Of a stretch of DNA of 64,000 bases, positions 7,185 through 34,152 are shown piece by piece. Every line of letters starts with the position of its first letter. Within the stretch, counting starts at the first letter, position 1. The stretch is from Frankiaceae bacterium (GTDB taxonomy: Bacteria; Actinomycetota; Actinomycetes; BP-191). The position numbers and the translations under genes were made by a program. A model generated the notes under the pieces. That model ran no database searches. It saw only the letters and a list, made by a program, of their open reading frames with translations, and was not told the origin of the DNA. The stretch covers positions 3,970 to 67,969 of the forward strand of contig DATLNJ010000016.1 of NCBI GenBank assembly GCA_035536815.1, read 5' to 3'.

Positions 7185-8696
7185 CTACGCGGTCCGCTCG
7201 GCCTCGTCCTCGGCGAGCTGGACGAACGTGCGCACCGGCATGCCCGTCCCGCCCTTCGGCGTGTAGCCCCACGGGTCGAGCGTGTTGTACGCCGGGCCGG
7301 CCACGTCGATGTGCGCCCACGGCAGGCCGTCGCGCACGAACTCCTTGAGGAACATGCCGCCGACGAGCATGCCGCCGTAGCGGTCGCCGGTGTTCGTGAT
7401 GTCGGCGACGTCGGAGTCGATCGACTTGCGCAGCTCGGCCGGCAGCGGCATCGGCCACATCAGCTCGCCGGCCCGCTCGGACGCCGCCACGACGCGCGCC
7501 CGCAGGTCGTCGTCGTTGCTCATGACGCCCGCGGTGCGCTGGCCGAGCGCGACGATCTGCGCGCCGGTCAGCGTCGCGGCGTCCACGATCAGGTCGGGGT
7601 CCTCCTCGGCGGCGCGGACGATCGCGTCGGCGAGGATCAGCCGACCCTCGGCGTCGGTGTTGAGGACCTCGACGCGCTTGCCGCCGTACATCGTCAGCAC
7701 GTCGCCCGGCCGGATGGCCGCGCCGGACGGCATGTTCTCGGCCATGGGGACCCAGCCGGTGACGTTGACGTGGAGGCCGAGCCGGGCGATCGCGGTCATC
7801 GCGGCGATGACCGACGCGGCGCCGGCCATGTCCGCCTTCATCCACTCCATCGCGGCGGCCGGCTTGATGGAGATGCCGCCGGAGTCGAACGTGATGCCCT
7901 TGCCGACGATCGCGAGGGTGCGCTTCGCGCGCGGGTGGCGGTACTGGATGCGCACCAGCCGGGGTGGGTTCGACGACCCCTGGCCGACGCCCATGATGCC
8001 GCCGTAGCCGCCCTTGCGGAGCGCCTTGTCGTCCGTCACCTCGACGTCGCAGCCGGCCTTGGTGCACTCGATCCGCGCGATCTCCGCGAGGTCGGCCGGG
8101 TGCAGGTCGCCGGGCGGGGTGTTCACCAGGTCGCGGGCGAGCGCGACGGCGTCGGCAACGGTCTCCGCGCGCTTCGCGGCGTTCGACGCGGCCTTGTTCT
8201 TCGGGTCCGGCACGACGACGGTGACGCCCTGCACCGGCTCCTTGCGGCCTTCGAGGGACGCGTTGCGGAACTTCACGAAGTCGTACGCCCCGAGCAGCGC
8301 GCCCTCCGCGACGGCGCGCTGCGCCTGCCGCGCCTCGACGCCGCCGTGCAGCGCGAGCGTGGTGGCGGCGCGGCGCGCGCCGGCCGCGGCGCGGACGCCG
8401 GTGCCGGCCGCACGGCGCAGCGTCTCGGCGGTCACCTTCTTCGGGTCGCCGAGCCCGACGAACACCACGCTGTTCGCGCCGAGCTTGCCGAGGGTGGGGA
8501 CGCGGACGGCCTCGTCCTCCTCCCCCTGGAAGCCGAGGTCGGCCAGCACCTTGGCGGTCCGGCCGCCGAACGCCTTGTCCACCGCGGCGTTCCCGGCCGC
8601 GAGCGAGAGGCCCTTGGGGCCCTTGGCGACGCCGACGACGAGCACGTCGGCCTTGAGTCCGCCCAGGTCCGGGCCGGCGAGAGAGAGCGAGGTCAT
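7185..8696 (-). CDS. pepA: leucyl aminopeptidase (M17)
   Basis: 503 aa carrying the M17 signature [13 protein letters not shown] plus [16 protein letters not shown]. Confidence 0.95.
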
Positions 8697-8722
8697 GCCC
8701 AGGAACTCTAGTGTTCGGCGAC

Positions 8723-9853
8723 ATGAAGACGACCTCCCTCCACGACCGGCACGTCTCGCTCGGGGCCAAGATGGCCGACTTCGGCGGCTGGGAGATGCCC
8801 ATCGAATACCCCGCCACCGCGCTGTCGCGCGGCGACGGGGACCCCGGGAGGAGCGGGGGCGGCGGCGTGCTCGCCGAGCACGCGGCGGTGCGCGAGCGGG
8901 TCGGGGTCTTCGACGTCTCGCACCTCGGCAAAGCGTCGGTGACCGGCCCCGGCGCGGCCGACTTCGTGAACTCCTGCCTCACCAACGACCTCGGCCGGAT
9001 CAAGCCCGGCCAGGCGCAGTACACGCTCTGCTGCGACGAATCCGGCGGCGTCGTCGACGATCTCATCGCCTACCTACGTAGCGATGACGACGTGCTGCTC
9101 GTCCCCAACGCCGCCAACACGGCCGCCGTGGCGCAGCGCCTCGCGGACGCCGCCCCGCCCGGCGTGGACGTGATGGGCCTGCACGAGGCGTACGCCATCG
9201 TCGCCATCCAGGGCCCGCGCTCGCCCGGCGTCATGCGCGCGCTCGGCCTGCCCGACGACCTCGGCTACATGGCGTTCGCCGAGGACGCCTGGGAGGGGCA
9301 CGCGGCGACCGTCTGCCGGACCGGCTACACCGGCGAGCACGGCTACGAGGTGCTGGTGCGCTGGGACGACGCCGACCAGCTTTGGGACGCCGCACTCGCG
9401 GCGGTGCGCGCGGAGGACGGGCTGCCGTGCGGGCTCGGCGCGCGGGACACGTTGCGGACCGAGATGGGCTACCCGCTGCACGGTCACGAGCTGGCGCTGG
9501 ACATCTCGCCGCTGCAGGCCCGCGCGGGGTGGGCGGTCGGCTGGGGCAAGCCGGCGTTCTGGGGGCGGGAGGCGTTGCTCGCCGAGAAGGAGCGCGGCCC
9601 GGCTCGGGTGCTGTGGGGGCTGCGCGCCACCGACCGGTCGATCCCGCGGCAGGGGATGGCGGTGTCGTCGGCGTCAGGGGTCGGCGGGGTCGTGACCAGC
9701 GGGACGTTCTCGCCGACGCTGCGGGTCGGCATCGGGCTGGCGCTGCTCTCTGGCGAGGTGGCGCCCGGCGACACCGTGGACGTGGACATCCGCGGCCGCA
9801 ACGTCCCGATGGAGGTCGTCAAGCCGCCGTTCGTCTCGTCCTCGCCGCGATGA
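8723..9853 (+). CDS. gcvT: glycine cleavage system aminomethyltransferase T
   Basis: Motifs are [38 protein letters not shown] and [12 protein letters not shown]. An alternative GTG start lies at 8711. It carries a Gly-rich insertion ([14 protein letters not shown]) near the N-terminus. Confidence 0.92.
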
Positions 9854-10194
9854 CCGCGCGCCTGGACCGCCTGCGCAAGGTCTGCCTCGCGCTGCCGGAG
9901 GCGACCGAGGTGCTCACCTGGGAGGACCACCCGACGTTCCGCGTGCGCGACAAGATCTTCGTCATCGCCGCGGCCGACGGCGGCGCGATCACGCTGAAGG
10001 CGACCAAGGACGACCAGGAGGCGCTGGTCGCGACGCACCCGCGGATCACGCCGGCGCCGTACCTCGCCCGGTCCGGCTGGGTCAGCGTGGACCTCACCGG
10101 CAAGGGGCTGGACTGGGCGATGGTCGAGGACCTGATCCTCGACTCGTACCGGCTGATCGCGCCGAAGCGGCTCAGCGCGCAGCTGGCTCGCTGA
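9850..10194 (+). CDS. MmcQ/YjbR family DNA-binding protein
   Basis: The ATG overlaps the gcvT stop (ATGA). The 114-aa sequence reads [38 protein letters not shown]...GWVSVDL, which is typical of the YjbR fold family. Confidence 0.8.
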
Positions 10195-13637: not shown

Positions 13638-14527
13638 GCGGCCGGCTTCCTGAACCGCCACACCGCCGCGCCGAGCAGGCCGAGTGCGAGCACGCCCGCC
13701 GCCGCCGTGCCGACCGGGAACCCGCCTTCGTCCGGCCGGGCGGGCAGCTCGCCCGCCTGCTCGACGGAGGGGTCATCGACGCCCGAGGTGCCGGACGGCG
13801 GGCCGCCCGCGGTGGCCGGTGCGGGCGCCGTCGCCGTCTCGCCGGCCGTCACCGTCGCCAGCGCGCCCGGCGCGCCCGGCGCGGCCGGTGTCCCGGCCGC
13901 CGCCGACGCCGCGCCGTCCGGGGCCGCCGTGACCCCCGCGCCGTTGCCGGGGCTGGTGCGCACCGCGCGCGGCGAACCATCCGCCGCCGGAGCGGCGCTG
14001 GTCTCCCCACCGGACGGCGCCGGCGGCGCCGGCTTCGTCGTGGGCTTGGGCGCGGGCTCCGTCGGCTTCGGGGTCGGCTTCGGGTACGACGGGTCGTAGC
14101 GCGGCGCCTGCCGCTGGTCCACCGCGTGGTACCGGAACCCGAACGGGTCCGGGTGCCCGTCGCGGTCGCGGTCCGCGACCTCGAGCGTCCCTACGCCCTC
14201 CTGCGAGTACACCCACCGCCCGCCGGACCAGTACCAGATCGACCAGTACGGGCTCGGCGGCTCGTCGCCGCAGCCGGACTCCGGGTACCCGTCGATGGCG
14301 CAGAGGAAGTTCCCCTTGTACCGCGCCCGGCCGCGCAGCGCGTCCGCCGCCGTGCCGCCGTAGCCGACGTCGGCGCAGCGCACGGTCGGCCCGGCGGGCG
14401 CGCCCTCGAACGTCCCGTAGTCCACGACCACGCGGACGCACTCCGCGGCCGTCGCCGGCCCGGCCGCGGGCAGCAGCGAGCCCGCGGCCAGCGCCGCGAC
14501 TCCCGCCGTCCGCGCCCGGTACGCCAT
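13634..14527 (-). CDS. secreted, C-terminally membrane-anchored protein with DUF4430-like (transcobalamin beta-domain-like) module; resembles actinobacterial 'SCO2322 family'
   Basis: The ATG at 14527 abuts the upstream stop (TGATG). The signal peptide is MAYRARTAGVAALAAGSLLPAAGPATA. The N-terminal domain is CVRVVVDYG...FLCAIDGYPE...YWSIWYWSGGRWVYSQEGVG. A long Pro/Ala/Thr linker and a C-terminal TM segment (VGTAAAGVLALGLLGAAVW) follow. Confidence 0.7.
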   Translation of the reverse strand: MAYRARTAGVAALAAGSLLPAAGPATAAECVRVVVDYGTFEGAPAGPTVRCADVGYGGTAADALRGRARYKGNFLCAIDGYPESGCGDEPPSPYWSIWYWSGGRWVYSQEGVGTLEVADRDRDGHPDPFGFRYHAVDQRQAPRYDPSYPKPTPKPTEPAPKPTTKPAPPAPSGGETSAAPAADGSPRAVRTSPGNGAGVTAAPDGAASAAAGTPAAPGAPGALATVTAGETATAPAPATAGGPPSGTSGVDDPSVEQAGELPARPDEGGFPVGTAAAGVLALGLLGAAVWRFRKPAA

Positions 14528-15849
14528 CAGCCGGCCAGGCCGTCCCGCCGGCGGGTCATGAACCGCGCGGCGGCAAGGGCCAGGACGCCGTAGCCGATCA
14601 GGCCGAGGCCGAAGACGACCTGGCCGTTGGCGTCCCACGGCTTCTCGCCGATCGAGCCGGTCGCGGGGAGCTCAGGCACCGGGGCGGCGTTGACGACCCG
14701 GGTCGGCGCCGGCACCGGGGCCGGCGGCGTGACCGGCACCTCCGACGGCAGGACCGGCGGCGGCGTCGTCGGTCCCGGCGTGGCCGGCGGCGTCGTCGGC
14801 GCGACCTGCGTGGGGAGCAGCGGCAGCGTGTTGACCAGCGTGCGTGGCGCGATCGGGTACGGGTCCCCGGCCAGCGCCGGCACCGCCTGCACGGTCGCGA
14901 AGACGTTCGCGGTCAGCGACCCGCCGGTGCCCGGCTGGAACGCGAACGCGCCCGCCGTCTTGGCCGGCGGGTTCGGCAGCTGCAGCGACAGCAGGAACGC
15001 GTACGGCGTGCCGTCCGGTGCCGACCAGTCGCCGAGGTCCTCGCCCAGCGCGAGCAGCGCCTGGATCGCGAGCGCGGTCGAGTTGGCGTCGCTGTCGAAG
15101 CCGGGGACGAAGCCGAAGCCGCCGTCGTCCTTCTGCGCGGCCGCGAGGAAGTCGCGCGCGTCGAAGCCCGGGGTCACGCCGAGCGCGTCGAGCGCCTGCG
15201 TGGCGAGGGCGGTGCCGTTGGTGTCCTCGCCGACGAACGTCTCGAAGTCGAACGCCGGGCACGACGCGGCGTCCTGGTCCGGGTTGTTGCCCATCCAGCC
15301 GCCGTCCGGGCACTGCTCGGCGACCAGCCACGCCACGGCGTCGGCGTCGGTCTGCCCGACGGCGGCGAGGGCGAGCAGGCCGAGCGCCTGGCGGTACGCG
15401 CCGTCGTACGTCGCGTCCCCGGCCCCGAACAGGCCCGCGTCGGGACCCGTCGTGCGCTTCGTGGCGAGCAGCCGCGTGACGAGCGCCGAGGTGTCCAGGC
15501 CGCGCGCGTGGCCGACCATGATCAGCTGCGCGAGGTTGCCGGGGTTGTCGGCGCCGCCCTGGACGACGTACGCGTCGACGTTGTCGAAGAGGAACTCCGT
15601 CGCCTCGGCGGCCTGCGCCTCGCCGACACCCGCGGCGACCAGCGCGAGCACCGCGAGGGCGGTCTCGGAGTAGTTGGCGCCGGACAGCGCCGGCACGTAG
15701 TCGGTCGGGTCCATGAGCCGCCCGAGGTAGCCGGCGCCGTAGTCCGCGGCCTGCTCGGGGGTGATCGTGGCGGCGTTGCCGACGCCGGGGATGGCCAGGG
15801 CGGTGGCGAGCGCCAGCCCGGCGGTGAACGTGGGTCGGAGGAGCCGCAC
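14527..15849 (-). CDS. surface protein with prenyltransferase/squalene-oxidase-type alpha/alpha-toroid repeats and LPXTG-like anchor
   Basis: The preferred start is the GTG at 15849, preceded by AGAAAGGGA; the track start is 15879. The signal peptide ends ...AIPGVGNA. Repeat-like blocks include QCPDGGW and QKDDGGFGF. The C-terminus is LPATG followed by a hydrophobic stretch and RRRD. Confidence 0.8.
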   Translation of the reverse strand: MRLLRPTFTAGLALATALAIPGVGNAATITPEQAADYGAGYLGRLMDPTDYVPALSGANYSETALAVLALVAAGVGEAQAAEATEFLFDNVDAYVVQGGADNPGNLAQLIMVGHARGLDTSALVTRLLATKRTTGPDAGLFGAGDATYDGAYRQALGLLALAAVGQTDADAVAWLVAEQCPDGGWMGNNPDQDAASCPAFDFETFVGEDTNGTALATQALDALGVTPGFDARDFLAAAQKDDGGFGFVPGFDSDANSTALAIQALLALGEDLGDWSAPDGTPYAFLLSLQLPNPPAKTAGAFAFQPGTGGSLTANVFATVQAVPALAGDPYPIAPRTLVNTLPLLPTQVAPTTPPATPGPTTPPPVLPSEVPVTPPAPVPAPTRVVNAAPVPELPATGSIGEKPWDANGQVVFGLGLIGYGVLALAAARFMTRRRDGLAG

Positions 15850-15924
15850 CCGGGGTCCCTTTCTGGTCGAGGAGCGCACCCGGGAGAACGACGACGCCCC
15901 CTTCGCTGCACGCGAGAGGGGGCG

Positions 15925-16539: not shown

Positions 16540-16722
16540 ATGGCGTGGCGATGGACGTACGACGGCGGCGGCGCGAGCCAGGAGTTCCCCTCGCAGGCGG
16601 ACGCGGAGACCTGGCTCGGCGAGTCGTGGCGCGAGCTGCTCGACGGCGGCACGCGGGCGGTGACGTTGCTGGAGGACGACCGCGAGGTCTACGGCCCGAT
16701 GTCGCTGGAGCCCGCGGAGTAG
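16540..16722 (+). CDS. small acidic hypothetical protein (60 aa)
   Basis: The ORF MAWRWTYDGGGASQEFPSQADAETWLGESWRELLDGG... starts at an ATG and has coding-like composition. Confidence 0.5.
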   Translation: MAWRWTYDGGGASQEFPSQADAETWLGESWRELLDGGTRAVTLLEDDREVYGPMSLEPAE

Positions 16723-16726
16723 GCGG

Positions 16727-17803
16727 CTACGACGTGTCGGATTCGGCGGCGAAGGAGACCACTGCGCCGAACTCCTCGACGAGGTCGGGGTTGCGTCGCA
16801 GCCGGGCGTCGAGGTCCGACCGGTCCCACCAACCCGCGTAGTACTCACCGTCGGCGCGGATCTTGTAGAGCCTGTCCACGAGGGGCGCTGTCAAGCGGGA
16901 CCGGACGACTAGGAAGTAGCCGTTCATCTCGTGGTGCCTAATCGTGTCGTAGATGGCAGTCACACGTGATACTCCGACGGGAGCGGCATCGGACTTGATC
17001 TGCACGATCAGCCTGCGTCGACGCGTCGGAGGGTGCGACTCGTCCGCGCGCTCCGTCGGGAGTATGGGCGTCGTCCATTCGACCAGGAGGTCACGGCCAC
17101 CGTCCCGTTCGGAAGACGCGCCGACCGGCGCAACCCACGACACGCCGTCCTCTCTCATGAGCAGCGCCATCACGAGCCGTTCGAAGACGTCGCCAGGCAC
17201 GTGAGGTGCCCATCGCACCGCCCGGTCGGCCATCAGGAGCTCGTTCTCGGCGTCGCGGCGTTGTCGGATCGCGTCGAGCGCCACGTCGTAGGCACGCCGG
17301 CCGCACTCCGCCGGCAGGAAGACGGTGTGTTCGCCTCCGATGACGGCGACGCCGTTCTCCAACGCGATCAACGTAGGCGCCGCGCCGACGGGAGGCTTTC
17401 CTTCGAGCGCTGTCAAGGCGCGGACCGCCGCCCGAATGGTGCGGGCGGGAACGAACGTCCGGATGCAGCCGTCGGTCGTCCGGCGGAAGACGCCGCTGGC
17501 GTCGGCGAGAAACAACTCGCCTTCGCGGCTCCGCGCGATGGCGCCGAACGCCCCCGCGAGCGACTCGCTGCGAAACACCGAGACCCCGTCGTCGGACCGG
17601 AAGTGCATCCAGTTCGGTTGCCTGCGGCGCCCGTACGTTGCCCGCTGCTTCGTCCGGCGTACCGCACGTTCGACCTGCGCGACCCACGACACGAGGTCGT
17701 CGGTGTCGGTCTCCTTCGCGCTACGACAGCCGGGCTCGCCGTCGTAACAGGCCCGAAGGAACAGGAGCGCGAACTCGCCCGCGACGACCAGCTCGGTCGC
17801 CAT
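16727..17803 (-). CDS. Mrr-type PD-(D/E)xK restriction endonuclease-domain protein (C-terminal nuclease; N-terminal half unknown)
   Basis: This is the coding-looking part of track ORF 16727..18097, starting at MATELVVAGEF. The C-terminal block is GDVFERLVMALLM...SERDGGRDLLVEW...RLIVQIKSD...YFLVVRS, which matches the Mrr_cat pattern (F-E-x-L, D-G-G-x-D, Q-x-K). Confidence 0.75.
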   Translation of the reverse strand: MATELVVAGEFALLFLRACYDGEPGCRSAKETDTDDLVSWVAQVERAVRRTKQRATYGRRRQPNWMHFRSDDGVSVFRSESLAGAFGAIARSREGELFLADASGVFRRTTDGCIRTFVPARTIRAAVRALTALEGKPPVGAAPTLIALENGVAVIGGEHTVFLPAECGRRAYDVALDAIRQRRDAENELLMADRAVRWAPHVPGDVFERLVMALLMREDGVSWVAPVGASSERDGGRDLLVEWTTPILPTERADESHPPTRRRRLIVQIKSDAAPVGVSRVTAIYDTIRHHEMNGYFLVVRSRLTAPLVDRLYKIRADGEYYAGWWDRSDLDARLRRNPDLVEEFGAVVSFAAESDTS

Positions 17804-18204
17804 CTCGACAGTGGTTGACGAGGAGCGGCGGTGTGCCGTTGTTGCTCGACTACGACATACCTCGCGTACAGCTCCCCCGGCAGGTCGACTACGGGGTGGC
17901 CAACTGTGACGAGTCGCGACGACGCGTACCCGGTGGCACGGAGATTCGCCGCGAGGGCCAGCGACAGCATGTCGTGGAGATCCGACCGGTCGCCGGGCGC
18001 GTCCGCCGACAAGGTCCGGCAGTACGCGTACGCGAACAGGCTGCCGCCCGTTGCCTCCACCGCGAAGGAGAACGGTGACCCGGCGCGGCGCAGCCACATG
18101 AGATCACCGGCAACCGAGACGTCGTACCCCGTCGCGCGCGCGGCCTCCTCGACCTCGCTAGCAGACACACCGGTCCGGTCGGCCGGGTCAGCTCCGCCGC
18201 GCAT
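17413..18204 (-). CDS. ORF whose first ~130 codons look coding (unknown domain); probably the N-terminal part of the downstream nuclease gene, separated by a frameshift
   Basis: The ATG at 18204 lies 3 nt after the GHKL gene stop. The stretch MRGGADPADRTGVSASEVEEAARATGYDVSV...GELYARYVVVEQ looks genuine. After ~17830 the translation becomes Arg/Ser-rich shadow while the other frame (MATELVV...) becomes coding. Confidence 0.4.
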   Translation of the reverse strand: MRGGADPADRTGVSASEVEEAARATGYDVSVAGDLMWLRRAGSPFSFAVEATGGSLFAYAYCRTLSADAPGDRSDLHDMLSLALAANLRATGYASSRLVTVGHPVVDLPGELYARYVVVEQQRHTAAPRQPLSRWRPSWSSRASSRSCSFGPVTTASPAVVARRRPTPTTSCRGSRRSNVRYAGRSSGQRTGAAGNRTGCTSGPTTGSRCFAASRSRGRSAPSRGAAKASCFSPTPAASSAGRPTAASGRSFPPAPFGRRSAP

Positions 18205-18207
18205 TCG

Positions 18208-19914
18208 CTACGGCCGTACGTTGCCGAGGAGCGAGCGGAGGAACTTGCCCCAGTCGTCTCGAAGCTCGACGAACTTGTCCGGCTGCGGGTCCATGGACTC
18301 TGCCTTCGCGTACGCCGTCACGAGCAGGGTCAGGGCATCGACCGTGCGTTGCGCGGCCGCCGTCGCCTCGTCCCCGCTCACGGTCCCGGCGGGCGCCTCG
18401 GCGATGGTGCGCAACGGCTGCCACACATCCTGATAGAAGGGGTGACGCTGGTTGATCATGATGATGATCTGATGGCTCAGGTGCTGGATCTCGAGAAAGC
18501 TGTGACCCGGATAATCCACGCTCTCGATCACGTACGGAAGCTCCGCGATGCGCGCGAGATACGCGGCCTTCGCCGCCGGCCCGCTGTGTCCCGCCGATTC
18601 GGCGAGGTTGTTCAGGATCTCCTTCTCGCGGTCCGGCGCAGGCGGTCGCGCCTTCCCACCCGGAAGGGTGCGGTCCGCGTTCTTCAGCCGGTTCGTGATG
18701 GACGCGTGCTCGCCGGCCGCGTCCCGTTGGCGGCGAGAAGCCTCGCCCCAGAGTCGCTTGATCTCCTCGCGCGCCTGTGGCATCCAACGCGACAGCTGCG
18801 TCCTGATCAGCGCGCGCAGGTCACCGTGCGGCTCCACGCCGCGCTTGACGTTGCGCACCCCCATGTAGTCGTCCAGCTCTGGCGTGAAGCTGATCTCGAT
18901 CCCGATGTAGCGGTCGAGCTCGAGGACTCCGGACGGCAGGATCTTCGGCACGTTCGTGTAATTGATCTCGCGGTTGAGACGCACGAACGACAGCGCGCCC
19001 TCGTTGTCGGGGACCGCGAGCGCGGTCGCGAGCTGATCGCCGCCCATGCCGCGGCGACGCACGACCTCAGGTGGGTACACCGTCAGCCGAAGCCGCACGC
19101 TGCTGCCGGCGAACGCGAGAGTTTCGTCGGCGATGACCTTTGCCGGGTAGTGATGCTTCAAGGGGAACGACGGGTCCACCTTTGCACGCTGGTAGTGCCG
19201 GCGCAGGATCCGGTCGGCGTTCGTTCCGTCCATGAGAAGCAACGGGTCGTGCGCCAGCAGCCGCGTGTCGTTGACCCAGATCTCGACGCCGCTGTCGATG
19301 AAGTAGCGAAACATGCGCGCGAGCTCTTTCTCGACCGCGACCCGCAGCGTGTTTGCGTCCGATGCGTGCCGGCCGGCCTCGAGCCGGTCCACTCGCGACC
19401 ACAAGACCAGCGTGCCCGAGGACTGCGGTAGCAGGTCTACGAAGGCCGGGGGAACGGGTGCCTCGGTCGGCGCCGCGATGGTGGCCTCCACGCCGGCCGC
19501 GGAAGAGCTGTCCGCCTCTGCGAGATCGAAGTAAACGTGCATCCAGGGCGAGTCGCCGTGGGTCCTGCTCCAGACGTCGAGACGTTCGCTGTACGCGAGC
19601 GCGGCGAGCTTGGCCCCGACGCCGTACTTGCCGATCGTGGTCGTGGACATGTAGCGGGTCGAGAACCCGATCTGCGGGTAGCGGTGAAGAGTGTCCACGT
19701 CCATCCCGGCGCCGTCGTCCACGATCGCGATCGCGCCGACGCGAGGGCGTCCGTGCGACTCCGCGTCCTCGTTGAGCCGCACGTGGATCGAGTTCGCCTT
19801 CGCCTCCAGCGAGTTGTCGACGACTTCACCGATCGCGGCGGCGAGGCTGTAGCCGGAGTCGCGCAAAGAGCGCAACGCGCGGCCGGCGAGCACGGCCGGA
19901 ATCGAGTTCTCCAT
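18208..19914 (-). CDS. GHKL-superfamily ATPase (HATPase_c_3 / MORC-MutL-like) with a ~350-aa uncharacterised C-terminal region
   Basis: 568 aa. The Bergerat-fold motifs occur in order: N-box EVVDNSLEAKA, G1 IVDDGAGMD, G2 IGKYGVGAKLAA, then SGTLVLWSRVD. Local G+C is visibly lower, with A/T-rich runs near 18450-18480. Confidence 0.85.
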   Translation of the reverse strand: MENSIPAVLAGRALRSLRDSGYSLAAAIGEVVDNSLEAKANSIHVRLNEDAESHGRPRVGAIAIVDDGAGMDVDTLHRYPQIGFSTRYMSTTTIGKYGVGAKLAALAYSERLDVWSRTHGDSPWMHVYFDLAEADSSSAAGVEATIAAPTEAPVPPAFVDLLPQSSGTLVLWSRVDRLEAGRHASDANTLRVAVEKELARMFRYFIDSGVEIWVNDTRLLAHDPLLLMDGTNADRILRRHYQRAKVDPSFPLKHHYPAKVIADETLAFAGSSVRLRLTVYPPEVVRRRGMGGDQLATALAVPDNEGALSFVRLNREINYTNVPKILPSGVLELDRYIGIEISFTPELDDYMGVRNVKRGVEPHGDLRALIRTQLSRWMPQAREEIKRLWGEASRRQRDAAGEHASITNRLKNADRTLPGGKARPPAPDREKEILNNLAESAGHSGPAAKAAYLARIAELPYVIESVDYPGHSFLEIQHLSHQIIIMINQRHPFYQDVWQPLRTIAEAPAGTVSGDEATAAAQRTVDALTLLVTAYAKAESMDPQPDKFVELRDDWGKFLRSLLGNVRP

Positions 19915-19957
19915 CGTTCTTTCCCTTCGGCGGTGGGGAGTGGTCTCGTGGCATCGG

Positions 19958-20590
19958 TCAGGCGGCGGCGTCAGCGACCACCGACTCGGCTACCTCGCGA
20001 ACCTTCGCGCGCAGCCGCACGATCGTGCGGGTGGAGACGGAGAGCCGCGCCGCGGCCTCTCCTACGGTTTCCTCGTGCAGAAGGCAGCTGAGCACCTCTT
20101 CGCCGAGCGCGCCGACGTCGCGCCGGACCGCGGCCGAAATCCGCCGCGCGAGGTCGACGGCGATGGCGTGCTCCTCGGGCGGGTTCGCGCTCGTGACGAT
20201 CGCCGTACCGGCGATGCGTCCGGCGGGCCCCGCGGTGTGGCGTCCTGGCGGAACGTCAGACGGGTTGCCGTGACGCGGGGTCCCGCTGTACAGGTTCGTC
20301 ACGACCCCGCCGTGGAATGCGAGGTCGGTCGGCGCGCACCCGGCGGCGATATCGGCCACGGCGCGCGCCTCGGCGGCGCTCGAACGCTGCACTGCGACCG
20401 ACGCGTTGCGAACGGCATCGTGCTCGAGGAACGCGTCATTCGTCGCGCTGCGCTTCGAGCTCAGCGCGTAGTCGATCGCCTTCTCGATGACCAGCGCGTC
20501 GCGACTACCAGGCCGGGACCGGGCGAGGCGTCGCTGTAGCGAGCGGACCGTGGCCGCTCGGACGTCATCCAGGCGTGCTGCTCTCGTCAT
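19958..20590 (-). CDS. HTH protein with sigma-70 region-4/LuxR-like C-terminus
   Basis: The ATG at 20590 is preceded by a perfect AAGGAG. It is 210 aa with C-terminal LLHEETVGEAAARLSVSTRTIVRLRAKVRE. I do not recognise the N-terminal two-thirds. Confidence 0.65.
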   Translation of the reverse strand: MTRAARLDDVRAATVRSLQRRLARSRPGSRDALVIEKAIDYALSSKRSATNDAFLEHDAVRNASVAVQRSSAAEARAVADIAAGCAPTDLAFHGGVVTNLYSGTPRHGNPSDVPPGRHTAGPAGRIAGTAIVTSANPPEEHAIAVDLARRISAAVRRDVGALGEEVLSCLLHEETVGEAAARLSVSTRTIVRLRAKVREVAESVVADAAA

Positions 20591-20641
20591 CTGAGCTCCT
20601 TTTGGCCCGTTCGCCCCATCAGGTGGCAAACCGGCGCTTCG

Positions 20642-20647
20642 ACTATA
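20642..20647 (-). promoter_or_regulatory. possible -10 element (TATAGT) for the islet operon
   Basis: The reverse strand reads ...gttcTATAGTcgaag..., about 50 nt upstream of the ATG at 20590. The -35 candidate TGCCGA at 17-nt spacing is weak. Confidence 0.25.
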
Positions 20648-20739
20648 GAACGGAGCGTGCAGAGTCGGCACTCACCGCCGTCTCCATGGGGTACGGCGCA
20701 CGACGAGGCGTCGAGAGGACAGGCCGGAGCGTGGAGAAG

Positions 20740-21300
20740 CTACTGCGGCGGGAGCGCGCCGCCGCGCTCCACGCGCGGGCGGGGCATGCGCTGGCGGCGG
20801 AACTGCGTGTTGCGCGCGATGCCGTACCAGGTCAGCGACTTGCGCGGCTGCTTGGTGCCGTCCGGCCAGCGCGCGTCCAGCGCCTTGCGCACGTCGCGCG
20901 CCGCGCCCATCGAGTCGCCGATGAGGATGAACACCACGATCGGGAACATCAGCGTCCCCGCCGCCTGCGCGGCCGGCGCGGGAACGAGCGTCAACAGCAG
21001 CCCGAGGAACCAGCCGGGGATTGCCAGCCACCCGATCGACCGGCGGGCGTCCACGACGTCGCGCACCAGCGCGCGTTCCGGGCCGGCCGCGATCGCCGGG
21101 TAGTAGCGCTCGTCGCCGGTGCGCATCGCCTCGCGCATCCGCCGCCGCGCCGCGGCCCGCTCGGCCTTGTCCGCGCGCTTGTCGCCCTTCGCCGCGGTGC
21201 CGCGCGGCGTGACGACCGGCTGCTTGCGCGCCTTCTGCGCCTCGGAACGCTTCGGGGTCGGGCGGCCCTTGCCGCGTGGCGGCTGCTCGGTCTCGGTCAC
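20740..21300 (-). CDS. DUF3043 family membrane protein
   Basis: 186 aa with a Lys/Arg-rich N-terminus (GKGRPTPKRSEAQKARK) and two TM segments (IGWLAIPGWFLGLLL, MFPIVVFILIG). This is typical of the actinobacterial DUF3043 family. Confidence 0.85.
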   Translation of the reverse strand: MTETEQPPRGKGRPTPKRSEAQKARKQPVVTPRGTAAKGDKRADKAERAAARRRMREAMRTGDERYYPAIAAGPERALVRDVVDARRSIGWLAIPGWFLGLLLTLVPAPAAQAAGTLMFPIVVFILIGDSMGAARDVRKALDARWPDGTKQPRKSLTWYGIARNTQFRRQRMPRPRVERGGALPPQ

Positions 21301-21301
21301 G

Positions 21302-22483
21302 TCAGTCCTTCGCCGCCGACGGCCCCGGCAGCGCGAGCATCCGGTCCAGCGCGAGCCGGGCGTACGCGCGCGTGTCCGGGTCGACCGTGATCTCGTTGAC
21401 GACGGTGCCGGCCACGAGGTTCTCCAGCGCCCAGACGAGGTGCGGGAGGTCGATGCGGTTCATGGTCGAGCAGAAGCACACGGTCTTGTCGAGGTACGTG
21501 ATCGGCTTGTCCGGGTGCTCCCTGGCCAGCCGGTTCACCAGGTTGAGCTCGGTGCCGATCGCGAACGCCGTCCCGCCCGGCGCCTCCCGCACGGTCTTGA
21601 TGATGTACTCGGTCGAGCCGACCAGGTCGGCCGCCTGCACGACCTCGTGCCGGCACTCGGGGTGCACCAGGACGACGACGCCGGGCACCCGCTCGCGCAC
21701 CTCGACGACGTTCTCGTACGAGAACCGCCCGTGCACCGAGCAGTGGCCGCGCCACAGGATCACCTTCGCCGCGCGCAGCTCGCCGGCGGTGAGGCCGCCG
21801 TTCGGCTTGAACGGGTTCCACACCACGCAGTCATCGAGTGAGAGGCCGAGGTCGCGCACGGCGGTGTTGCGGCCGAGGTGCTGGTCGGGGAGGAACAGGA
21901 TCTTCTCGCCCTGCTCGAACGCCCACTCCATCGCGCGCCTGGCGTTGGACGACGTGCAGATCGCGCCGCCGTGCTTGCCGGTGAACGCCTTGATGTCGGC
22001 CGAGGAGTTCATGTACGTGAGCGGCACGACCTGGTCCGCGATGCCCGCGTCGGTCAGCGCGTCCCAGCAGTCCTCGACCTGGGGCAACGCCGCCATGTCG
22101 GCCATCGAGCAGCCGGCCGCGAGGTCGGGGAGGACGACGCGCTGGCGCTCGCTGGTGAGGATGTCCGCGGACTCGGCCATGAAGTGCACGCCGCAGAACA
22201 CGACGTACTCGGCGTCCGGCCGGGCGGCCGCTTCCTGGGCGAGCTTGAACGAGTCCCCGGTCACGTCGGCGAACTGGATGACCTCGTCGCGCTGGTAGTG
22301 GTGCCCGAGCACGAACACCCGCTCGCCGAGCCTCGCCTTCGCCGCCCGCGCGCGCTCGACCAAAGCCGGGTCGCTCGCCTCCGGCAGGTCGCCCGGGCAG
22401 AGCGTCCCGCGCTCGGAGTCCGGGTCCGCGCGGCGGCCGAGCAGCAGCAGCGCGACCGGGGTCGGAGCGGGGGCGGTGGTCAC
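21302..22483 (-). CDS. nadA: quinolinate synthase
   Basis: This is the 3' part of the 861-aa track ORF, with GTG at 22483. The N-terminus VTTAPAPTPVALLLLGRRADPDSERGTLCPGDLP and the block VFVLGHHYQRDEVIQFADVTGDSFKLA...FCGVHFMAESADILTS match long actinobacterial NadA. Confidence 0.9.
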   Translation of the reverse strand: MTTAPAPTPVALLLLGRRADPDSERGTLCPGDLPEASDPALVERARAAKARLGERVFVLGHHYQRDEVIQFADVTGDSFKLAQEAAARPDAEYVVFCGVHFMAESADILTSERQRVVLPDLAAGCSMADMAALPQVEDCWDALTDAGIADQVVPLTYMNSSADIKAFTGKHGGAICTSSNARRAMEWAFEQGEKILFLPDQHLGRNTAVRDLGLSLDDCVVWNPFKPNGGLTAGELRAAKVILWRGHCSVHGRFSYENVVEVRERVPGVVVLVHPECRHEVVQAADLVGSTEYIIKTVREAPGGTAFAIGTELNLVNRLAREHPDKPITYLDKTVCFCSTMNRIDLPHLVWALENLVAGTVVNEITVDPDTRAYARLALDRMLALPGPSAAKD

Positions 22484-22592
22484 GGTCCCTGAGTCTCCCA
22501 CGCTCCGTACAACGCGTTCCGGAGGCCGTTTGCTTCCTTGCGCGTGCAACGGACGCTGCTCGCGCGACGGCGTTGCGGGCACACTGCGAGCC

Positions 22593-23708
22593 ATGCGGGT
22601 CCTCGTCGCGCCGAACGCGTTCGCCGGCACGCTCACCGCCGCCGAGGCCGGCGCGGCGATCGCGGCCGGGTGGCGGCGGCAGCGCCCGGACGACGCGCTG
22701 ACGGTGGTCCCCGTCGCGGACGGCGGGCCGGGGACCGTTGCGGCGCTCGCCCCGCTCGGCGAGCTGCGGACGGCAGGGGTGGAGGACCCGCTGGGGCGGC
22801 GGATCGACGCGCAGTGGCTGCTGCTGCCGGACGGCACCGCGGTCGTCGAGAGCGCGGCGGCGTGCGGGCGGCACCTCGCGGTGGACCCGTTGCGCGCCTC
22901 GACCGGCGGCGTCGGCGAGCTGGTCTGCGCGGCGTTGGGCGAGGAGGTACGGCGGGTCGTCGTCGGCGTCGGCGGGACCGCGTCGACCGACGGCGGCGCG
23001 GGCGCCGCCGCGACGCTCGGCGCCTGGCTGCTCGACGCGTCCGGGCACCCGGTCGGGCCCGGGGGCGCGGCGCTCGCCGCCCTCGAGCGCGTCGACCTTG
23101 CCGACCTCGACCCGCGACTGTCCGGCGTCGCCGTCGAGGTCGCCGCCGACGTCGACAACGTCCTGTGCGGGCCGGACGGCGCGGCGTACGGCTTCGGCCC
23201 GCAGAAGGGCGCGACCGCTGAGCAGGTGGCCGAGCTGGACGCGGCGCTGCGCCGGTACGCCGCCGTCGTCGCCCGCGACGTGCCCGGCGCCGAGGGCGTC
23301 GCGACCCGGCCGCACGCCGGCGCGGGCGGCGGGCTGGCGGCCGGGTTGATGGCGTTCGCGGGCGCGACCGCGCGGCCCGGCGCGGCGGTCGTGCTCGACC
23401 TGCTGCGGCTGTCCCGGGACGTGGCGCTGGCCGACCTCGTCGTGACGGGGGAGGGGACGTTCGACTGGCAGTCGCTGCGCGGCAAGGCGCCCGCCGCGGT
23501 GGCGCGGCTGGCGCAGGTGGAGGGCGTTCCGTGCGTCGTCCTCGCCGGGCAGGTCGAGGCCGGGCGGCGCGAGCTCGGTACGGCCGGCGTGGACGCGGCG
23601 TACGCCGTCGCCGACCTCGCCGGTTCGGTGGAGGAGTCGCTGGCCGAGCCGCGCGGCTGGCTGGAGGAGCTGGCCGCCCGCGTCGCCACCGAGTGGTCGC
23701 GACGCTGA
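22593..23708 (+). CDS. glycerate kinase
   Basis: ATG at 22593. Motifs are MRVLVAPNAFAGTLTAAEAG...VPVADGGPGT...DLVVTGEGTFDWQSLRGKAP. Confidence 0.85.
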   Translation: MRVLVAPNAFAGTLTAAEAGAAIAAGWRRQRPDDALTVVPVADGGPGTVAALAPLGELRTAGVEDPLGRRIDAQWLLLPDGTAVVESAAACGRHLAVDPLRASTGGVGELVCAALGEEVRRVVVGVGGTASTDGGAGAAATLGAWLLDASGHPVGPGGAALAALERVDLADLDPRLSGVAVEVAADVDNVLCGPDGAAYGFGPQKGATAEQVAELDAALRRYAAVVARDVPGAEGVATRPHAGAGGGLAAGLMAFAGATARPGAAVVLDLLRLSRDVALADLVVTGEGTFDWQSLRGKAPAAVARLAQVEGVPCVVLAGQVEAGRRELGTAGVDAAYAVADLAGSVEESLAEPRGWLEELAARVATEWSRR

Positions 23709-23726
23709 GACGCGCGGCGCGAATAC

Positions 23727-24659
23727 CTAGAGGCCGATCGACACCGCGGCGACAATCGCGCGGTCGATGGTGTTCGCCGCGGCGAGCACGAAGTGCGCGG
23801 TCTGTTCACCGCCGTTGATCTGACCGGGGAAGTAGTAGCGACCGTAGTTGTGCAGGAAAATACCCTGCCACGGCGGTGCGGCCGCAAAGATCATCTGATC
23901 CTCGCTGTGGATTCCGCCGTTGCCTTCCTTCGACTCCGTGACGCACGCGGGGTGCTCGGCCGCGCCGATGCAGGAGGGCGTGCTGTTCGTGGTCGTCCGA
24001 GCCGTGCCGCGCGTGATGAGTTGGCTCGTGGTGAACGAGATCGACTTGTTCGAGACGACCGTGATCGGCAGGTCCACCTTCACGGTGCCGGGCGTCGCAA
24101 TCCTGGCCGGCCCACCGGGGAGGAGGTCCTTGGTCACGTTCTTCGAGACGAACGCCACCTTGGCGGGTCGCGTCGCGTGCAGCGTCCGGCCGGCATAGCC
24201 GGTGAAGGGGATGCGAACCTCGACCGGCCCGTCGCCGAGGGCGTAGAGGCGGTAGCGCCCCGCCGGGACGGTGCGCGGGGGGAACGACAGGAAGTCCGCC
24301 CCGCCCAGCGGCAGCGGTAGCCAGTCGAACCGGGAATCGCGGTAGCCCTGGAGGTAGATGTTGCCCGTGCCATTCGGGTAGGACGAGCTCAGCGGGTGGA
24401 GGTAGAAGCCGACGTAGTTGCGGCCACCGCTGACGGTCACCTTGTCGTTGTCGAGTCGGACCGGCCGCGTGAAGGTCACGTCCACGGACGCGCTCGACCT
24501 GGCGCGAAGGATCGTCTGCTTCGGCGCGGCGGCATGGCCGGGTGCCGCGGAGAACCCCGCGATCACGAGCGCGAGTGCGACGGGAACCCGTACGCGCCTG
24601 ACGACTGGGGCTGGCGACACGACACGCTGCGAGCGACCTCGGAGAGTCATCGAGCCCAC
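23727..24659 (-). CDS. secreted hypothetical protein (~300 aa), paralog of 49891..50787
   Basis: It has a signal peptide (VALALVIAGFSAAPGHAAA). Blocks shared with the 49891 gene are SSASVDVTFTRPVRL vs RSASVDVRVPRAVTL, VTVSGG vs IAVSGG, and VPAGRYRLYA vs LPAGTYRLYF. Confidence 0.7.
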   Translation of the reverse strand: MGSMTLRGRSQRVVSPAPVVRRVRVPVALALVIAGFSAAPGHAAAPKQTILRARSSASVDVTFTRPVRLDNDKVTVSGGRNYVGFYLHPLSSSYPNGTGNIYLQGYRDSRFDWLPLPLGGADFLSFPPRTVPAGRYRLYALGDGPVEVRIPFTGYAGRTLHATRPAKVAFVSKNVTKDLLPGGPARIATPGTVKVDLPITVVSNKSISFTTSQLITRGTARTTTNSTPSCIGAAEHPACVTESKEGNGGIHSEDQMIFAAAPPWQGIFLHNYGRYYFPGQINGGEQTAHFVLAAANTIDRAIVAAVSIGL

Positions 24660-24695
24660 CTTTCGGGAGTCGTGCCGCCAGCCGTCGGCCAGCCG

Positions 24696-25217
24696 TCAGC
24701 AGGGGTTGGAGTCGACCGGCGTCGGGTTGCCGAGCGCCGTGACCTGGTAGCGGTCCTCCCAGCAGAAGTTCCCCAGCCGCGACGACGCGAGCATGGTCAC
24801 CGTGACGACGCCTGCCTCACGCACGCCGATCGCGTAGGGGACGTTCTGTGACGCGGTGGCGGTGGTACTGCCCGTCGCCACGACGGTGCGAGGCGCGTGG
24901 GTGGGCGACTGGTCCGAGACGATGATCACGGTCGTCCACGTCACGGACGAGCAGCCGGAGGACTTGACGCTCATCCGCCCTGACTCGTGCGCCGTACCGA
25001 CCGCCAGGCCGGTGCTCGTGAAGATGACGCGGCTCGTCGGCGTGTAGGTGATCGAGCACAGGGCCAGCGCGTTCGCCGGGTCGGGCACGACGAGATGGAT
25101 CGAGAACAGGTCGTCGTCCGCGCCGAGCGGGTTGGGGATGGCGTTCGCGGGCGTGGCCATGCCGACGGTGACAGCGGCGGCTGCGGTCACAGCCAATGCG
25201 GTGCGCTTGAGAAGCAT
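24696..25217 (-). CDS. small secreted 4-Cys hypothetical protein
   Basis: Signal peptide MLLKRTALAVTAAAAVTVGMATPANA. It has four Cys, the last being the C-terminal residue (..DSNPC), and lies upstream of and co-directional with 23727..24659. Confidence 0.7.
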   Translation of the reverse strand: MLLKRTALAVTAAAAVTVGMATPANAIPNPLGADDDLFSIHLVVPDPANALALCSITYTPTSRVIFTSTGLAVGTAHESGRMSVKSSGCSSVTWTTVIIVSDQSPTHAPRTVVATGSTTATASQNVPYAIGVREAGVVTVTMLASSRLGNFCWEDRYQVTALGNPTPVDSNPC

Positions 25218-25720
25218 TTCGAGGTCCTCCGTTGTCGGTGGTTTCGACGCACCGCGTCGGAACCCTTGCCTACCGGGCGTCGAGCACGCGGGGACTTTCG
25301 GTTCGGAGCCAGGTCTGGCTGCCCGATCGGGCGGTCACCCCCTCCCGTGCCGCGTGACGGATGCGCGTCGGGTCGGCGGGCGTCTTTTCGAGATGCCGGG
25401 GGCGCCTGCGGGAGCTTCGCGTAAGGCGTCGGCGGGGCCATACGTGGTCACGGCGAAGCCTCCCCCGGTCGAACACGCGCCCCGCTTCTCGCTTCTTCCC
25501 GGTGAAAGCGGAGGGACAAAGGCAGATTATGGACTGTGAAACGTGCCGTCAATGGAGTTCGCGAGTTGACGTGAATCCACTGACACCGGCTCGCGACGCG
25601 ACGAGTTCGACGACGCAGCGTCGCCTGCTGGCGTTGCCGGCGACGACCGCGCGCGGTTCCGCGACGGGCTGAGCGCCGGCCTGGCGCCGCGCGGGAACGG
25701 GAGACCTGCGAGACGCAGCC

Positions 25721-26025
25721 TCAGTCCTTTCCGTACGCGCGGTGGACGGTCGCGACGCGCACGCGGTACCGCTCGTACCACTGGCCGGTGCCGCGGCGTT
25801 GCGCCTCGACGTGCTCGGCCACCCGCTTCCACGCGCGGGCGTCCTCGTCGGTCGCCCAGTACGACACCGTGATGCCGGGGACGCTCTCCATGCCGAGGTA
25901 GCCGGCTGCGCCGCGGCCAGCTCCTTCATCCGCTCGGCCGTGGCGGCGTAGCCGTCGTCGTCGGCGCCACGCACGGACGTGAAGATGACCGCCGTGTACG
26001 GCGGGTCCGGCGTCTCCGCGAGCAC
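25721..26025 (-). pseudogene. ABM-domain (antibiotic biosynthesis monooxygenase-like) gene with a 1-nt frameshift
   Basis: The N-terminal half (VLAETPDPPYTAVIFTSVRGADDDGYAATAERMKELAAAQP) is in one frame. The C-terminal half (GYLGMESVPGITVSYWATDEDARAWKRVAEHVEAQRRG...) is in another. The junction is at CAGCCGGCTACC (~25908-25915), where one extra G would restore a ~101-aa ABM protein. Confidence 0.6.
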
Positions 26026-26119
26026 GTCGCGACGGTAGCGAACGCCTGTGGGACCATGGAATCCGGAGCGGCCGCGCACGGTTGCACCGCATGTCGCCAG
26101 TCGTACGAATGGGAGCCCC

Positions 26120-26467
26120 ATGACCGAGACCCAGACCGCCTCCTCGACCGTCGTCCTTTCGGACACCGCCGCGGCGAAGGTCAAGTCCCTGCTCGAGCAG
26201 GAGGGCCGCGACGACCTCGCGCTGCGGATCTCCGTGCAGCCCGGTGGCTGCTCGGGCATGCGCTACCAGCTCTTCTTCGACGACCGCACGCTCGACGGCG
26301 ACACGTTCCTCGACTTCAGCGGCGTCAAGGTCGTGGTCGACCGGATGAGCGGCCCGTACCTCGGCGGCGCCACCATCGACTTCGTGGACACCATCGAGAA
26401 GCAGGGCTTCACGATCGACAACCCGAACGCGAAGGGCTCCTGCGCCTGCGGCGACTCGTTCCACTAG
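26120..26467 (+). CDS. HesB/IscA-family iron-sulfur cluster insertion protein
   Basis: 115 aa carrying LRISVQPGGCSGMRYQLFFD and the C-terminal signature GSCACGDSFH. Confidence 0.92.
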   Translation: MTETQTASSTVVLSDTAAAKVKSLLEQEGRDDLALRISVQPGGCSGMRYQLFFDDRTLDGDTFLDFSGVKVVVDRMSGPYLGGATIDFVDTIEKQGFTIDNPNAKGSCACGDSFH

Positions 26468-34108: not shown

Positions 34109-34152
34109 CGGACGATCGTGTCAGGTGCGCGGCGGGGTCGGCGCGCGACCGG

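Follow-up and report, generated by a model that had tools for sequence, protein, structure and literature searches.

The window analysed here is a 64,000-nt stretch of Frankiaceae DNA (contig DATLNJ010000016.1), and it carries an inserted islet of three genes encoding, in order of transcription, a helix-turn-helix (HTH) protein (gene 1), a MORC-like GHKL ATPase (gene 2) and an Mrr-type nuclease broken by a frameshift (gene 3). With moderate confidence, we interpret the islet as the orphaned restriction or reader arm of a defence system of the phosphorothioate (PT) DNA modification type, disarmed in its nuclease. The window copy is probably non-functional, and the main value of the analysis lies in the association found at the level of families: a conserved HTH-ATPase pair and a ~480-aa Mrr-type nuclease family, both newly described here, both track the dnd and ssp genes that write PT marks and are candidate missing components of these systems. 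PT modification is widespread (for scale, dnd or ssp genes are reported in ~6% of gut genomes; PMC12914056), yet for the majority of dnd and ssp clusters no restriction partner is known (83.9% of sspBCD clusters in one survey; PMC8092258), and how self-attack is avoided in partly modified genomes is a standing question.

Association of the HTH-ATPase pair and the nuclease family with phosphorothioation genes

One genome per GTDB species was scanned with the ATPase alignment, giving 84 loci, and all open reading frames (ORFs) in their 10-kb flanks were clustered. The commonest neighbours are DndD, DndA, DndB, DndC, DndE, SspB (DUF4007), a protein of the size of SspC and an SspD-like PAPS reductase, the Dnd and Ssp identities being confirmed by the curated models TIGR03185 (754 bits), TIGR03235, TIGR03233, TIGR03183, TIGR03184 and Pfam DUF4007. 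PT-writing genes (dndABCDE or sspABCD) lie within 10 kb in 56 of the 84 loci (dnd in 38, ssp in 22) at a median distance of 1.3 kb, and the link persists after de-replication of the ATPases (29 of 43 clusters at 70% identity, 13 of 21 at 60%). Five of the six nearest relatives of the window ATPase (at least 60% identity) are PT-linked (L003, L004/5, L008, L051 and L077), and the pair tracks Dnd and Ssp clusters alike across at least eight phyla. Further dnd-associated genes in these loci are PbeA/TIGR04095 (14 loci) and TIGR04096 (17 loci).

The closest companion of the ATPase gene is the HTH gene, a homologue of which stands immediately upstream on the same strand in 69 of the 84 loci, with a divergent equivalent in the Comamonadaceae loci. 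An earlier reading of the window, made by a model from the sequence alone (the sequence-only reading), had proposed regulator, ATPase and nuclease as a unit; the first two do form a conserved pair, whereas a nuclease of this family comes directly after the ATPase in just two loci, the window and L037. Between the HTH and ATPase genes 40 of the 84 loci (L004 7517-8008, L037 9535-9987 and 38 more) have a gene for a ~150-aa protein, often overlapping the ATPase start, that is possibly a third, optional subunit; the window lacks this gene, and its spacer between the HTH and ATPase genes measures 43 nt. The ~150-aa protein has no Pfam, NCBIfam or PADLOC match. TIGR04062 (dnd_assoc_4) was considered for it and gave no match, and the weak dnd_assoc_4 match in L006 is a DndE-like protein next to a CxC/DndD-type ABC ATPase. 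Public records label the ATPase only as 'ATP-binding protein'; plasmid databases contain 17 records with it, annotated only in this way or as 'hypothetical', and phage databases gave no convincing phage copy.

No paper tying GHKL, HATPase, MORC or paraMORC proteins to phosphorothioation was found in the open-access full-text literature. The 2024 reappraisal of Dnd neighbourhoods reports HKD, HNH, restriction endonuclease (REase, including HARE-HTH fusions), URI, HEPN and PIN partners and makes no mention of GHKL, MORC, MutL, HATPase or Mrr (PMC10853773).

The nuclease family has its own association with PT genes. An exhaustive profile search returned at least 244 nuclease clusters (50% identity) at E≤1e-30, nearly all of ~480 aa and matched end to end, and the impression of a very rare family left by a word-indexed search (five homologues) is withdrawn. 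Besides the dnd locus in which the nuclease lies near the pair, 5 of 16 metagenome loci, several of the others being short, place the nuclease beside dnd or ssp writers (Table 1): in L095 it sits between DndA and a DndB-like gene, and in L096 it is 128 nt from SspD. In L007 the gene before the nuclease encodes a HARE-HTH protein, and two longer family members are fused to an N-terminal SAD/SRA domain. These fusions, together with an MspJI/AspBHI-like catalytic domain, both point to modification-aware cutting as the probable activity. Since the pair (56 of 84 loci) and the nuclease family both recurrently neighbour PT genes, the likely cognate modification is phosphorothioate.

In L041, L045 and L073 the gene after the ATPase encodes another Mrr_cat protein (E=2.4e-25), unrelated to the first, so the link between GHKL ATPase and Mrr nuclease recurs with non-orthologous parts. 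Most loci have no nuclease gene at that position. A separate observation concerns L044 (Mycobacterium neumannii), in which a 500-aa protein downstream of the ATPase (8557-10059) weakly resembles antiphage GapS1 (NF047931, E=1.1e-13, below cut-off).

The inserted islet and its three genes

The islet is strain-specific and horizontally acquired. In L087, the closest relative at hand (DUF3043 protein 90% identical, DNA 89-91% identical), blastn aligns positions 1-731 with window 21463-20739 and positions 970-2276 with window 16722-15419, leaving a spacer of 238 nt, while in L088 and L089 (~81-82% identity) window positions 20758/20760 are joined to 16714/16720, an empty site. The limits of the islet are set by this empty junction, which L087, L088 and L089 share. 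In L087 the spacer (732-969) comprises a run of (GCCC)n together with a ~50-nt repeat (CAACTGACAGTGCGCGCGAGCACGCGAAGGCCCCGCCAGGCACTGCCAGTTG) that can form a hairpin and is present twice; the spacer is possibly a REP-like element or a hotspot of recombination. A search of the islet ends gave neither terminal repeats nor a target-site duplication, and an Rfam scan gave no known RNA within the islet. The islet has a GC content of 68.4% compared with 73.9% for the window, the lowest among 240 overlapping 4-kb stretches, and the GC content at third codon positions (GC3) of its genes is 0.83-0.88 against 0.97 in the adjoining DUF3043 gene. The compositional shift seen in the raw sequence is therefore real, but one of its exhibits, the A/T-rich run at 18454-18475 (placed near 18455-18480 by the sequence-only reading), encodes QIIIMINQRH, the most conserved C-terminal motif of the ATPase, and so reflects amino-acid constraint and not foreign origin alone.

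The three genes are co-directional on the minus strand between conserved flanks, as had been read from the letters, with gaps of 43 nt between the HTH and ATPase genes and 3 nt between the ATPase and nuclease genes (ATPase stop TAG 18208-18210, next ATG at 18204). No integrase, tRNA or methyltransferase was found next to the islet, in agreement with the sequence-only reading; the methyltransferase, however, is not the relevant test for this islet, the PT genes are. A tblastn search with Dnd and Ssp proteins over the window found no dnd or ssp gene, its only match being a housekeeping-type cysteine desulfurase (33089-34117, 32% identical to DndA).

The ATPase matches Pfam HATPase_c_3 over residues 22-168 (E=1.6e-19, 70.7 bits against a cut-off of 25) and has conserved Bergerat motifs I-IV (ExxxN, DxGxG, GxxGxG and T), including the strings picked out beforehand (EVVDNSLEAKA, IVDDGAGMD and IGKYGVGAKLAA). 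Residues E30, N34, D66, G68, G70, G95, K96, G98, G100, T168 and K357 are 97-100% conserved among 204 sequences; K357, invariant in all of them, is presumably the transducer lysine. An AlphaFold 2 model (predicted local distance difference test, pLDDT, 80.7) finds MORC2 as its best Foldseek match (9cdh_B, E=5e-13, 462 columns), followed by SMCHD1, MORC4 and Hsp90, with alignments to the ATPase modules of MORC2, SMCHD1 and MORC4 covering 400-465 columns (E~1e-12), and the sequence profile also matches MORC2 and TopoVI-B. By motif and by structure the protein thus belongs to the MORC/MutL/Hsp90-like branch of the GHKL superfamily and has an S5-fold transducer domain. This accounts for about half of the ~350 aa that had resisted assignment from sequence; the last ~200 aa have no PDB match by sequence, and REase, TIR and DUF4263 gave no match in the C-terminus. 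A 24-sequence alignment drawn from Actinomycetota, Acidimicrobiia, Cyanobacteria, Pseudomonadota, Planctomycetota and others has a mean column identity of 65% over the full ~570 aa.

The conserved motif of the C-terminal domain (Table 1) belongs to a fuller near-invariant set, E464...H478...N488-x-R490-H491-x-F-Y, within a predicted β-β-α element (strands 474-478 and 483-488 and helix 492-505 in the model). The assignment of a nuclease domain to the C-terminus was rejected, as the PDB sequence search was empty and the idea of a His-Me nuclease has only the motif and the predicted element to draw on; that the H...N.RH.FY element is a His-Me-finger-like site is thus speculative, and it might equally serve in dimerisation or in binding a partner. 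Were it one, the HTH-ATPase pair would possess a nuclease of its own, which would matter for the many loci with no separate nuclease gene.

Gene 1 probably starts at ATG 20590 (210 aa) and not at the start of the longest ORF, because AAGGAG (20596-20601) lies 6 nt upstream; a gene caller run on contig L001, described below, picks the same ATG. The ribosome-binding site (RBS) was correctly recognised from the sequence, while the HTH is supported at the level of the family and not by the window protein alone, whose HTH matches are all sub-threshold (HTH_17, E=0.091). Among 20 family members Pfam finds HTH_23 in nine, HTH_28 in seven, Sigma70_ECF in four (9.6e-5) and Sigma70_r4 in two (3.5e-5), and the family profile matches FixJ (4e-4), sigma-H (3e-3) and also FliA C-termini in the PDB, suggesting that the C-terminal ~60 aa resemble sigma-70 region 4 or the FixJ-LuxR HTH. 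No sigma region 2 was detected, and the protein is therefore not a bona fide sigma factor. Its N-terminal half matches no known family but includes a conserved helical region (PGS...E.AIDYALS...FL..D.LR.A...R). Directly upstream of the RBS lies an imperfect palindrome, GCCGGTTTGCC-ACCTGAT-GGGGCGAACGGGC, which is kept upstream of gene 1 in the window, L002, L003, L004/5, L008, L051 and L077 (several orders) and for which RNAalifold predicts 12 pairs, two with compensatory changes; possible roles are that of an operator bound by the HTH protein and that of a hairpin acting on translation.

The C-terminus of the nuclease is an Mrr_cat domain of the PD-(D/E)xK endonuclease class, as judged from the Pfam score (E=1.8e-5, 25.2 bits against a cut-off of 21) and from its residues. 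The FERLV, DGGRD and VQIK strings noted earlier are present, and D366, D370, Q400 and K402 are invariant in the nuclease alignment (A1). The AlphaFold model (pLDDT 74) has three domains, with Foldseek matches to AspBHI (2.7e-4), MspJI (4.5e-3) and YbjN (6vu7_D, probability 1.00), and also to SicP for the N-terminal domain.

The reading frame of the nuclease is broken, as the sequence-only reading had it. GC3 follows the frame of ATG 18204 as far as ~17870 and then switches frame (near 17850-17890). When intact homologues are used as tblastn queries, their residues ~2-120 fall in frame -2 (18180-17812, or down to 17821) and residues 131-478 in frame -1 (17806-16745); the frame-repaired translation aligns end to end with proteins of 479-486 aa (P0122-P0126). 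In the model the N-terminal domain is interrupted immediately ahead of its last helix, so the two halves cannot be independent functional genes. A programmed frameshift is rejected, there being no slippery heptamer or homopolymer at 17806-17821 and the shift cutting inside a folded domain. In all likelihood the frameshift is an inactivating 1-nt deletion, a small measure of doubt being kept for an artefact of assembly or population; the intact catalytic residues downstream and the high GC3 of both halves indicate that the inactivation is recent. That the shift is non-biological, the nuclease being intact in the organism and the islet fully functional, is unlikely. The source is a metagenome-assembled genome, and the intact residues and high GC3 just cited would be expected of such an error as well, but a Logan assembly of the same run made with another assembler (L001, SRR8544467) is identical over 5,522 nt including the frameshift, no homopolymer or slippery heptamer lies at the site, and the NCBI annotation also starts the nuclease gene downstream of the shift (358-aa product). 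As a restriction system the window copy is probably non-functional, since the frameshift lies within the N-terminal domain of the nuclease.

Table 1. Coordinates of the islet, its genes and elements, and loci in which the nuclease family occurs
Feature	Position or locus	Strand	Remarks
Inserted islet	16723-20738	.	4,016 nt; in place of a 50-240-nt intergenic spacer of related genomes (blastn)
Gene 1, HTH protein	19958-20590	-	210 aa; longest ORF 237 aa, up to 20671
Leader stem-loop or imperfect palindrome	20605-20635	-	GTTTGCC-N8-GGCGAAC, ~31 nt; directly upstream of gene 1 RBS
Gene 2, MORC-like ATPase	18208-19914	-	568 aa; GHKL residues 22-168; S5/transducer-like middle to ~350; C-terminal domain ~360-568
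H478...N488-x-R490-H491 motif	18442-18483	-	ATPase C-terminal domain; 96-99% conserved in 204 sequences
Gene 3, frameshifted nuclease pseudogene	16727-18204	-	Intact form ~480-490 aa; N-terminal domain like YbjN and type III secretion system (T3SS) chaperones, beta-rich middle, Mrr_cat PD-(D/E)xK
Frameshift (equivalent to a 1-nt deletion)	17806-17821	-	Before last helix of YbjN-like domain
Mrr_cat catalytic core	16886-17194	-	D366, G368-R369-D370, Q400-x-K402 intact; residues 302-404 of 456-aa ORF
DUF3043 gene	20740-21300		Flank of islet
Small convergent gene	end at 16722		Other flank of islet
Nuclease directly after ATPase	window, L037
Nuclease 5 kb from HTH-ATPase pair	L062		In dnd locus
Nuclease beside dnd/ssp writers	L092, L095, L096, L100, L102		5 of 16 metagenome loci; several others short
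Nuclease beside TIGR04096	L006, L007		dnd-associated putative methyltransferase (604 bits)
Nuclease-SF2 helicase-HATPase_c_3-PLD operon	L094 1434-7328		Next to TrbL

Proposed function and alternatives

In the mechanism that we propose, the three proteins would interact physically, sense PT and act in defence. The MORC-like GHKL-S5 ATPase would dimerise on ATP and clamp or scan DNA, the sigma-4-like HTH protein would contact DNA and/or regulate its own operon through the leader palindrome, and the YbjN-like/Mrr_cat protein would be the DNA-cutting effector, its non-catalytic domains either docking to the ATPase complex or reading how the DNA is modified. The pair would in most genomes act beside dndABCDE or sspABCD, the writers of the self mark. 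In the window, the cognate writer is missing from all 64 kb and the nuclease is frameshifted, and the copy is for these reasons most likely disarmed. By analogy such a copy would fit the toxicity of unrestrained PT restriction arms in PT-free cells, DndFGH, SspFGH and DndI being harmful to host cells that lack PT (PMC8092258, PMC11662687). The islet would then be a natural case of an arm parted from its modification genes with its nuclease knocked out, as expected if unrestrained arms are toxic.

Several points weigh against the interpretation of the islet as a disarmed PT-dependent arm. PT genes could lie elsewhere in the metagenome-assembled genome, since the view covers 64 kb, and the frameshift could be a population variant or an assembly artefact, both assemblies deriving from one run. 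In 28 of the 84 ATPase loci, many of them cyanobacterial, no PT gene lies within 10 kb, so that the pair can occur, and may even work, with no PT genes next to it; nor is a nuclease gene directly attached in most ATPase loci, which makes the nuclease an optional partner. Several PT-linked loci, though a minority, already carry a known restriction partner (in a rough survey, 14 have PbeA, 3 an SspE-like protein and 2 a DndH-sized ORF), and co-location in defence islands could inflate the association with PT genes.

A broader proposal, which we put forward tentatively, is that the HTH protein and MORC-like ATPase form an unrecognised, widespread arm, effector or reader, that serves both the double-strand (Dnd) and the single-strand (Ssp) systems, with the ~150-aa protein as an option, with exchangeable Mrr-type nucleases and perhaps with a His-Me-like site of its own in the C-terminal H...N.RH motif. 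If this is correct, the pair would explain some of the many PT clusters for which no restriction partner is known and would provide the first link between MORC-type DNA clamps and modification of the DNA backbone. Eukaryotic MORC ATPases are DNA-clamping silencers, and to find one of their bacterial relatives linked with an epigenetic mark on the DNA backbone would be of interest to the MORC and PT fields alike.

The nuclease family might instead represent stand-alone restriction of type IV character, in which the Mrr-type enzyme cuts foreign-modified DNA (PT of another specificity, or modified cytosine) with the ATPase and HTH protein as accessories and no need for host modification. Mrr itself is a type IV enzyme, the best Foldseek matches of the nuclease are the modification-dependent AspBHI and MspJI, SAD/SRA domains and a HARE-HTH gene accompany family members, and neither the window nor L037 has PT genes nearby. 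The Foldseek similarity, however, is to the catalytic fold and not to a reader domain, the N-terminal domain is YbjN-like and not an SRA or sulfur-binding domain, and the nuclease often lies directly beside PT writers (L095, L096), an arrangement that would be self-destructive for a PT-dependent cutter. We consider this alternative improbable.

We attach similarly little weight to a regulatory pair, in which the HTH protein would serve as transcription factor or as a minimal sigma-like factor and the ATPase as its ATP-dependent, anti-sigma or chaperone-like partner, the two together controlling neighbouring PT or defence genes, with the nuclease incidental. The likeness of the HTH C-terminus to sigma-70 region 4 and FixJ, the palindromic leader just upstream of gene 1, which suggests autoregulation, and the position of the pair at the edge of dnd and ssp operons would all suit such a role, and GHKL anti-sigma factors are familiar from SpoIIAB and RsbW. 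The ATPase nevertheless groups with MORC, MutL and Hsp90, having an S5 transducer and a C-terminal domain that is long and conserved, and is not of the small SpoIIAB type; it would be unusual for a local regulator to keep 65% column identity over 570 aa from one phylum to another; the gap from the ATPase stop to the nuclease start is 3 nt; Mrr_cat nucleases of two unrelated families recur after the ATPase; and the pair is also found where there are no PT genes to regulate.

Least likely of all is that a MutL-like ATPase and a DNA-binding partner maintain or repair PT-DNA, processing nicks or oxidative damage at PT sites or helping to place and remove marks with the nuclease as a repair nickase, for although PT-DNA is prone to oxidative cleavage, the GHKL-S5 architecture is common to MutL, the pair tightly adjoins both Dnd and Ssp writers and a separate restriction partner is already present in several loci, the pair is patchily distributed and moves horizontally (a foreign islet here, and plasmids), no MutS-like or other repair-gene partner is found, the nuclease family has SAD/SRA fusions and resembles type IV enzymes, and the window copy has no PT genes nearby.

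Relation to known systems and neighbouring features

PADLOC, NCBIfam and Pfam assign the islet proteins to no named system, in line with the sequence-only reading, which had recognised none. Its more general placement, a GHKL/paraMORC ATPase linked to a restriction-fold nuclease, also fits the 2008 study of prokaryotic MORC and paraMORC proteins by Iyer, Abhiman and Aravind, which predicts GHKL ATPases in operons resembling restriction-modification systems and has no mention of dnd or phosphorothioation (PMC2292703). Shared with those families are a GHKL-S5 module with intact ATP-binding motifs, a sporadic and laterally mobile distribution, an operonic link to restriction-fold endonucleases and a family-specific C-terminal extension. 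In contrast to them, the ATPase of the islet family has as its constant partner not an SF2 helicase or methylase but a sigma-4-like HTH protein, which the ~150-aa protein may or may not accompany, and the dominant neighbourhood is DNA phosphorothioation. The H...N.RH motif cannot be equated with published paraMORC signatures such as ExxxH in the S5 domain of paraMORC2 or C-terminal RecB-like, TIR or HxH domains in paraMORC3-5 (PMC2292703). The classic layout of helicase, GHKL ATPase and nuclease does occur with the nuclease family of the islet, in L094, a metagenome contig whose four genes lie beside the conjugation gene TrbL and whose HATPase_c_3 ATPase is distant; by sequence, this locus is a MORC-type conflict system on a conjugative element.

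With DndFGH, SspE, SspFGH, DndI and PbeABCD the islet family has in common the niche at the edge of dnd and ssp clusters, the pairing of ATPase with nuclease and the precedent of toxicity without PT. None of the three window proteins is homologous to DndFGH, SspE/DndI, SspFGH or PbeABCD in PADLOC or NCBIfam, and the published domain descriptions differ too: DndI and SspE are DUF262-DUF1524 proteins, SspFGH consists of Walker A and FtsK-like proteins, DndFGH of a P-loop kinase, an REase and a HerA/FtsK protein, and PbeABCD of an HKD-SF2 helicase, a small protein, a CxC ABC ATPase and DndE, whereas a GHKL ATPase is found in the islet and in none of these systems.

Among named GHKL families, MzaB of the MZA system (PADLOC PDLC02204, NCBIfam NF041932) is the best defence-library match, with a common N-terminal HATPase_c_3-type domain, but the match is confined to residues 14-227 (60.1 bits against a cut-off of 850), and no MzaA, MzaC, MzaD or MzaE homologue is adjacent. 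The match to BbrUII/HgiDII (NF050001) reaches 39.6 bits against a cut-off of 550 over residues 22-223 only. Membership of the MzaB, BbrUII, MutL or TopoVI-B families is rejected, the similarity being limited to part of the N-terminal GHKL region and far below family cut-offs. VcSduA (paraMORC3, type I-D Shedu) requires both its ATPase and its nuclease activity for phage defence (PMC12137116) and follows the same logic of a GHKL ATPase controlling a PD-(D/E)xK nuclease; in the islet, by contrast, the two are separate polypeptides, the nuclease is of Mrr_cat and not DUF4263 type, and there is an additional HTH subunit and a PT context. The nuclease shares its catalytic fold and D...QxK motif with MspJI, AspBHI and Mrr, and some family members share the SRA reader; it differs in having a YbjN/T3SS-chaperone-like N-terminal domain and a beta-rich domain instead of SRA, in being operonic with an ATPase and in often lying beside PT writers.

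Two further features of the window lie outside the islet. A second stretch of low GC content (66-70%) at ~23709-26045, flanked by the genes for glycerate kinase (22476-23708) and for an Fe-S biosynthesis protein (26048-26467), is missing from L088 and L089 and is probably another strain-specific islet; its ORFs 23727-24659 and 24696-25217, both on the minus strand, have no Pfam match. On the other side, a cobalamin riboswitch (RF00174, 16010-16129, minus strand; 33.1 bits, gathering score 31.5, E=1.1e-5) is located in a region kept in related contigs, upstream of a gene (14527-15879, minus strand) for a 450-aa secreted protein with weak similarity to prenyltransferase/terpene-cyclase toroids.

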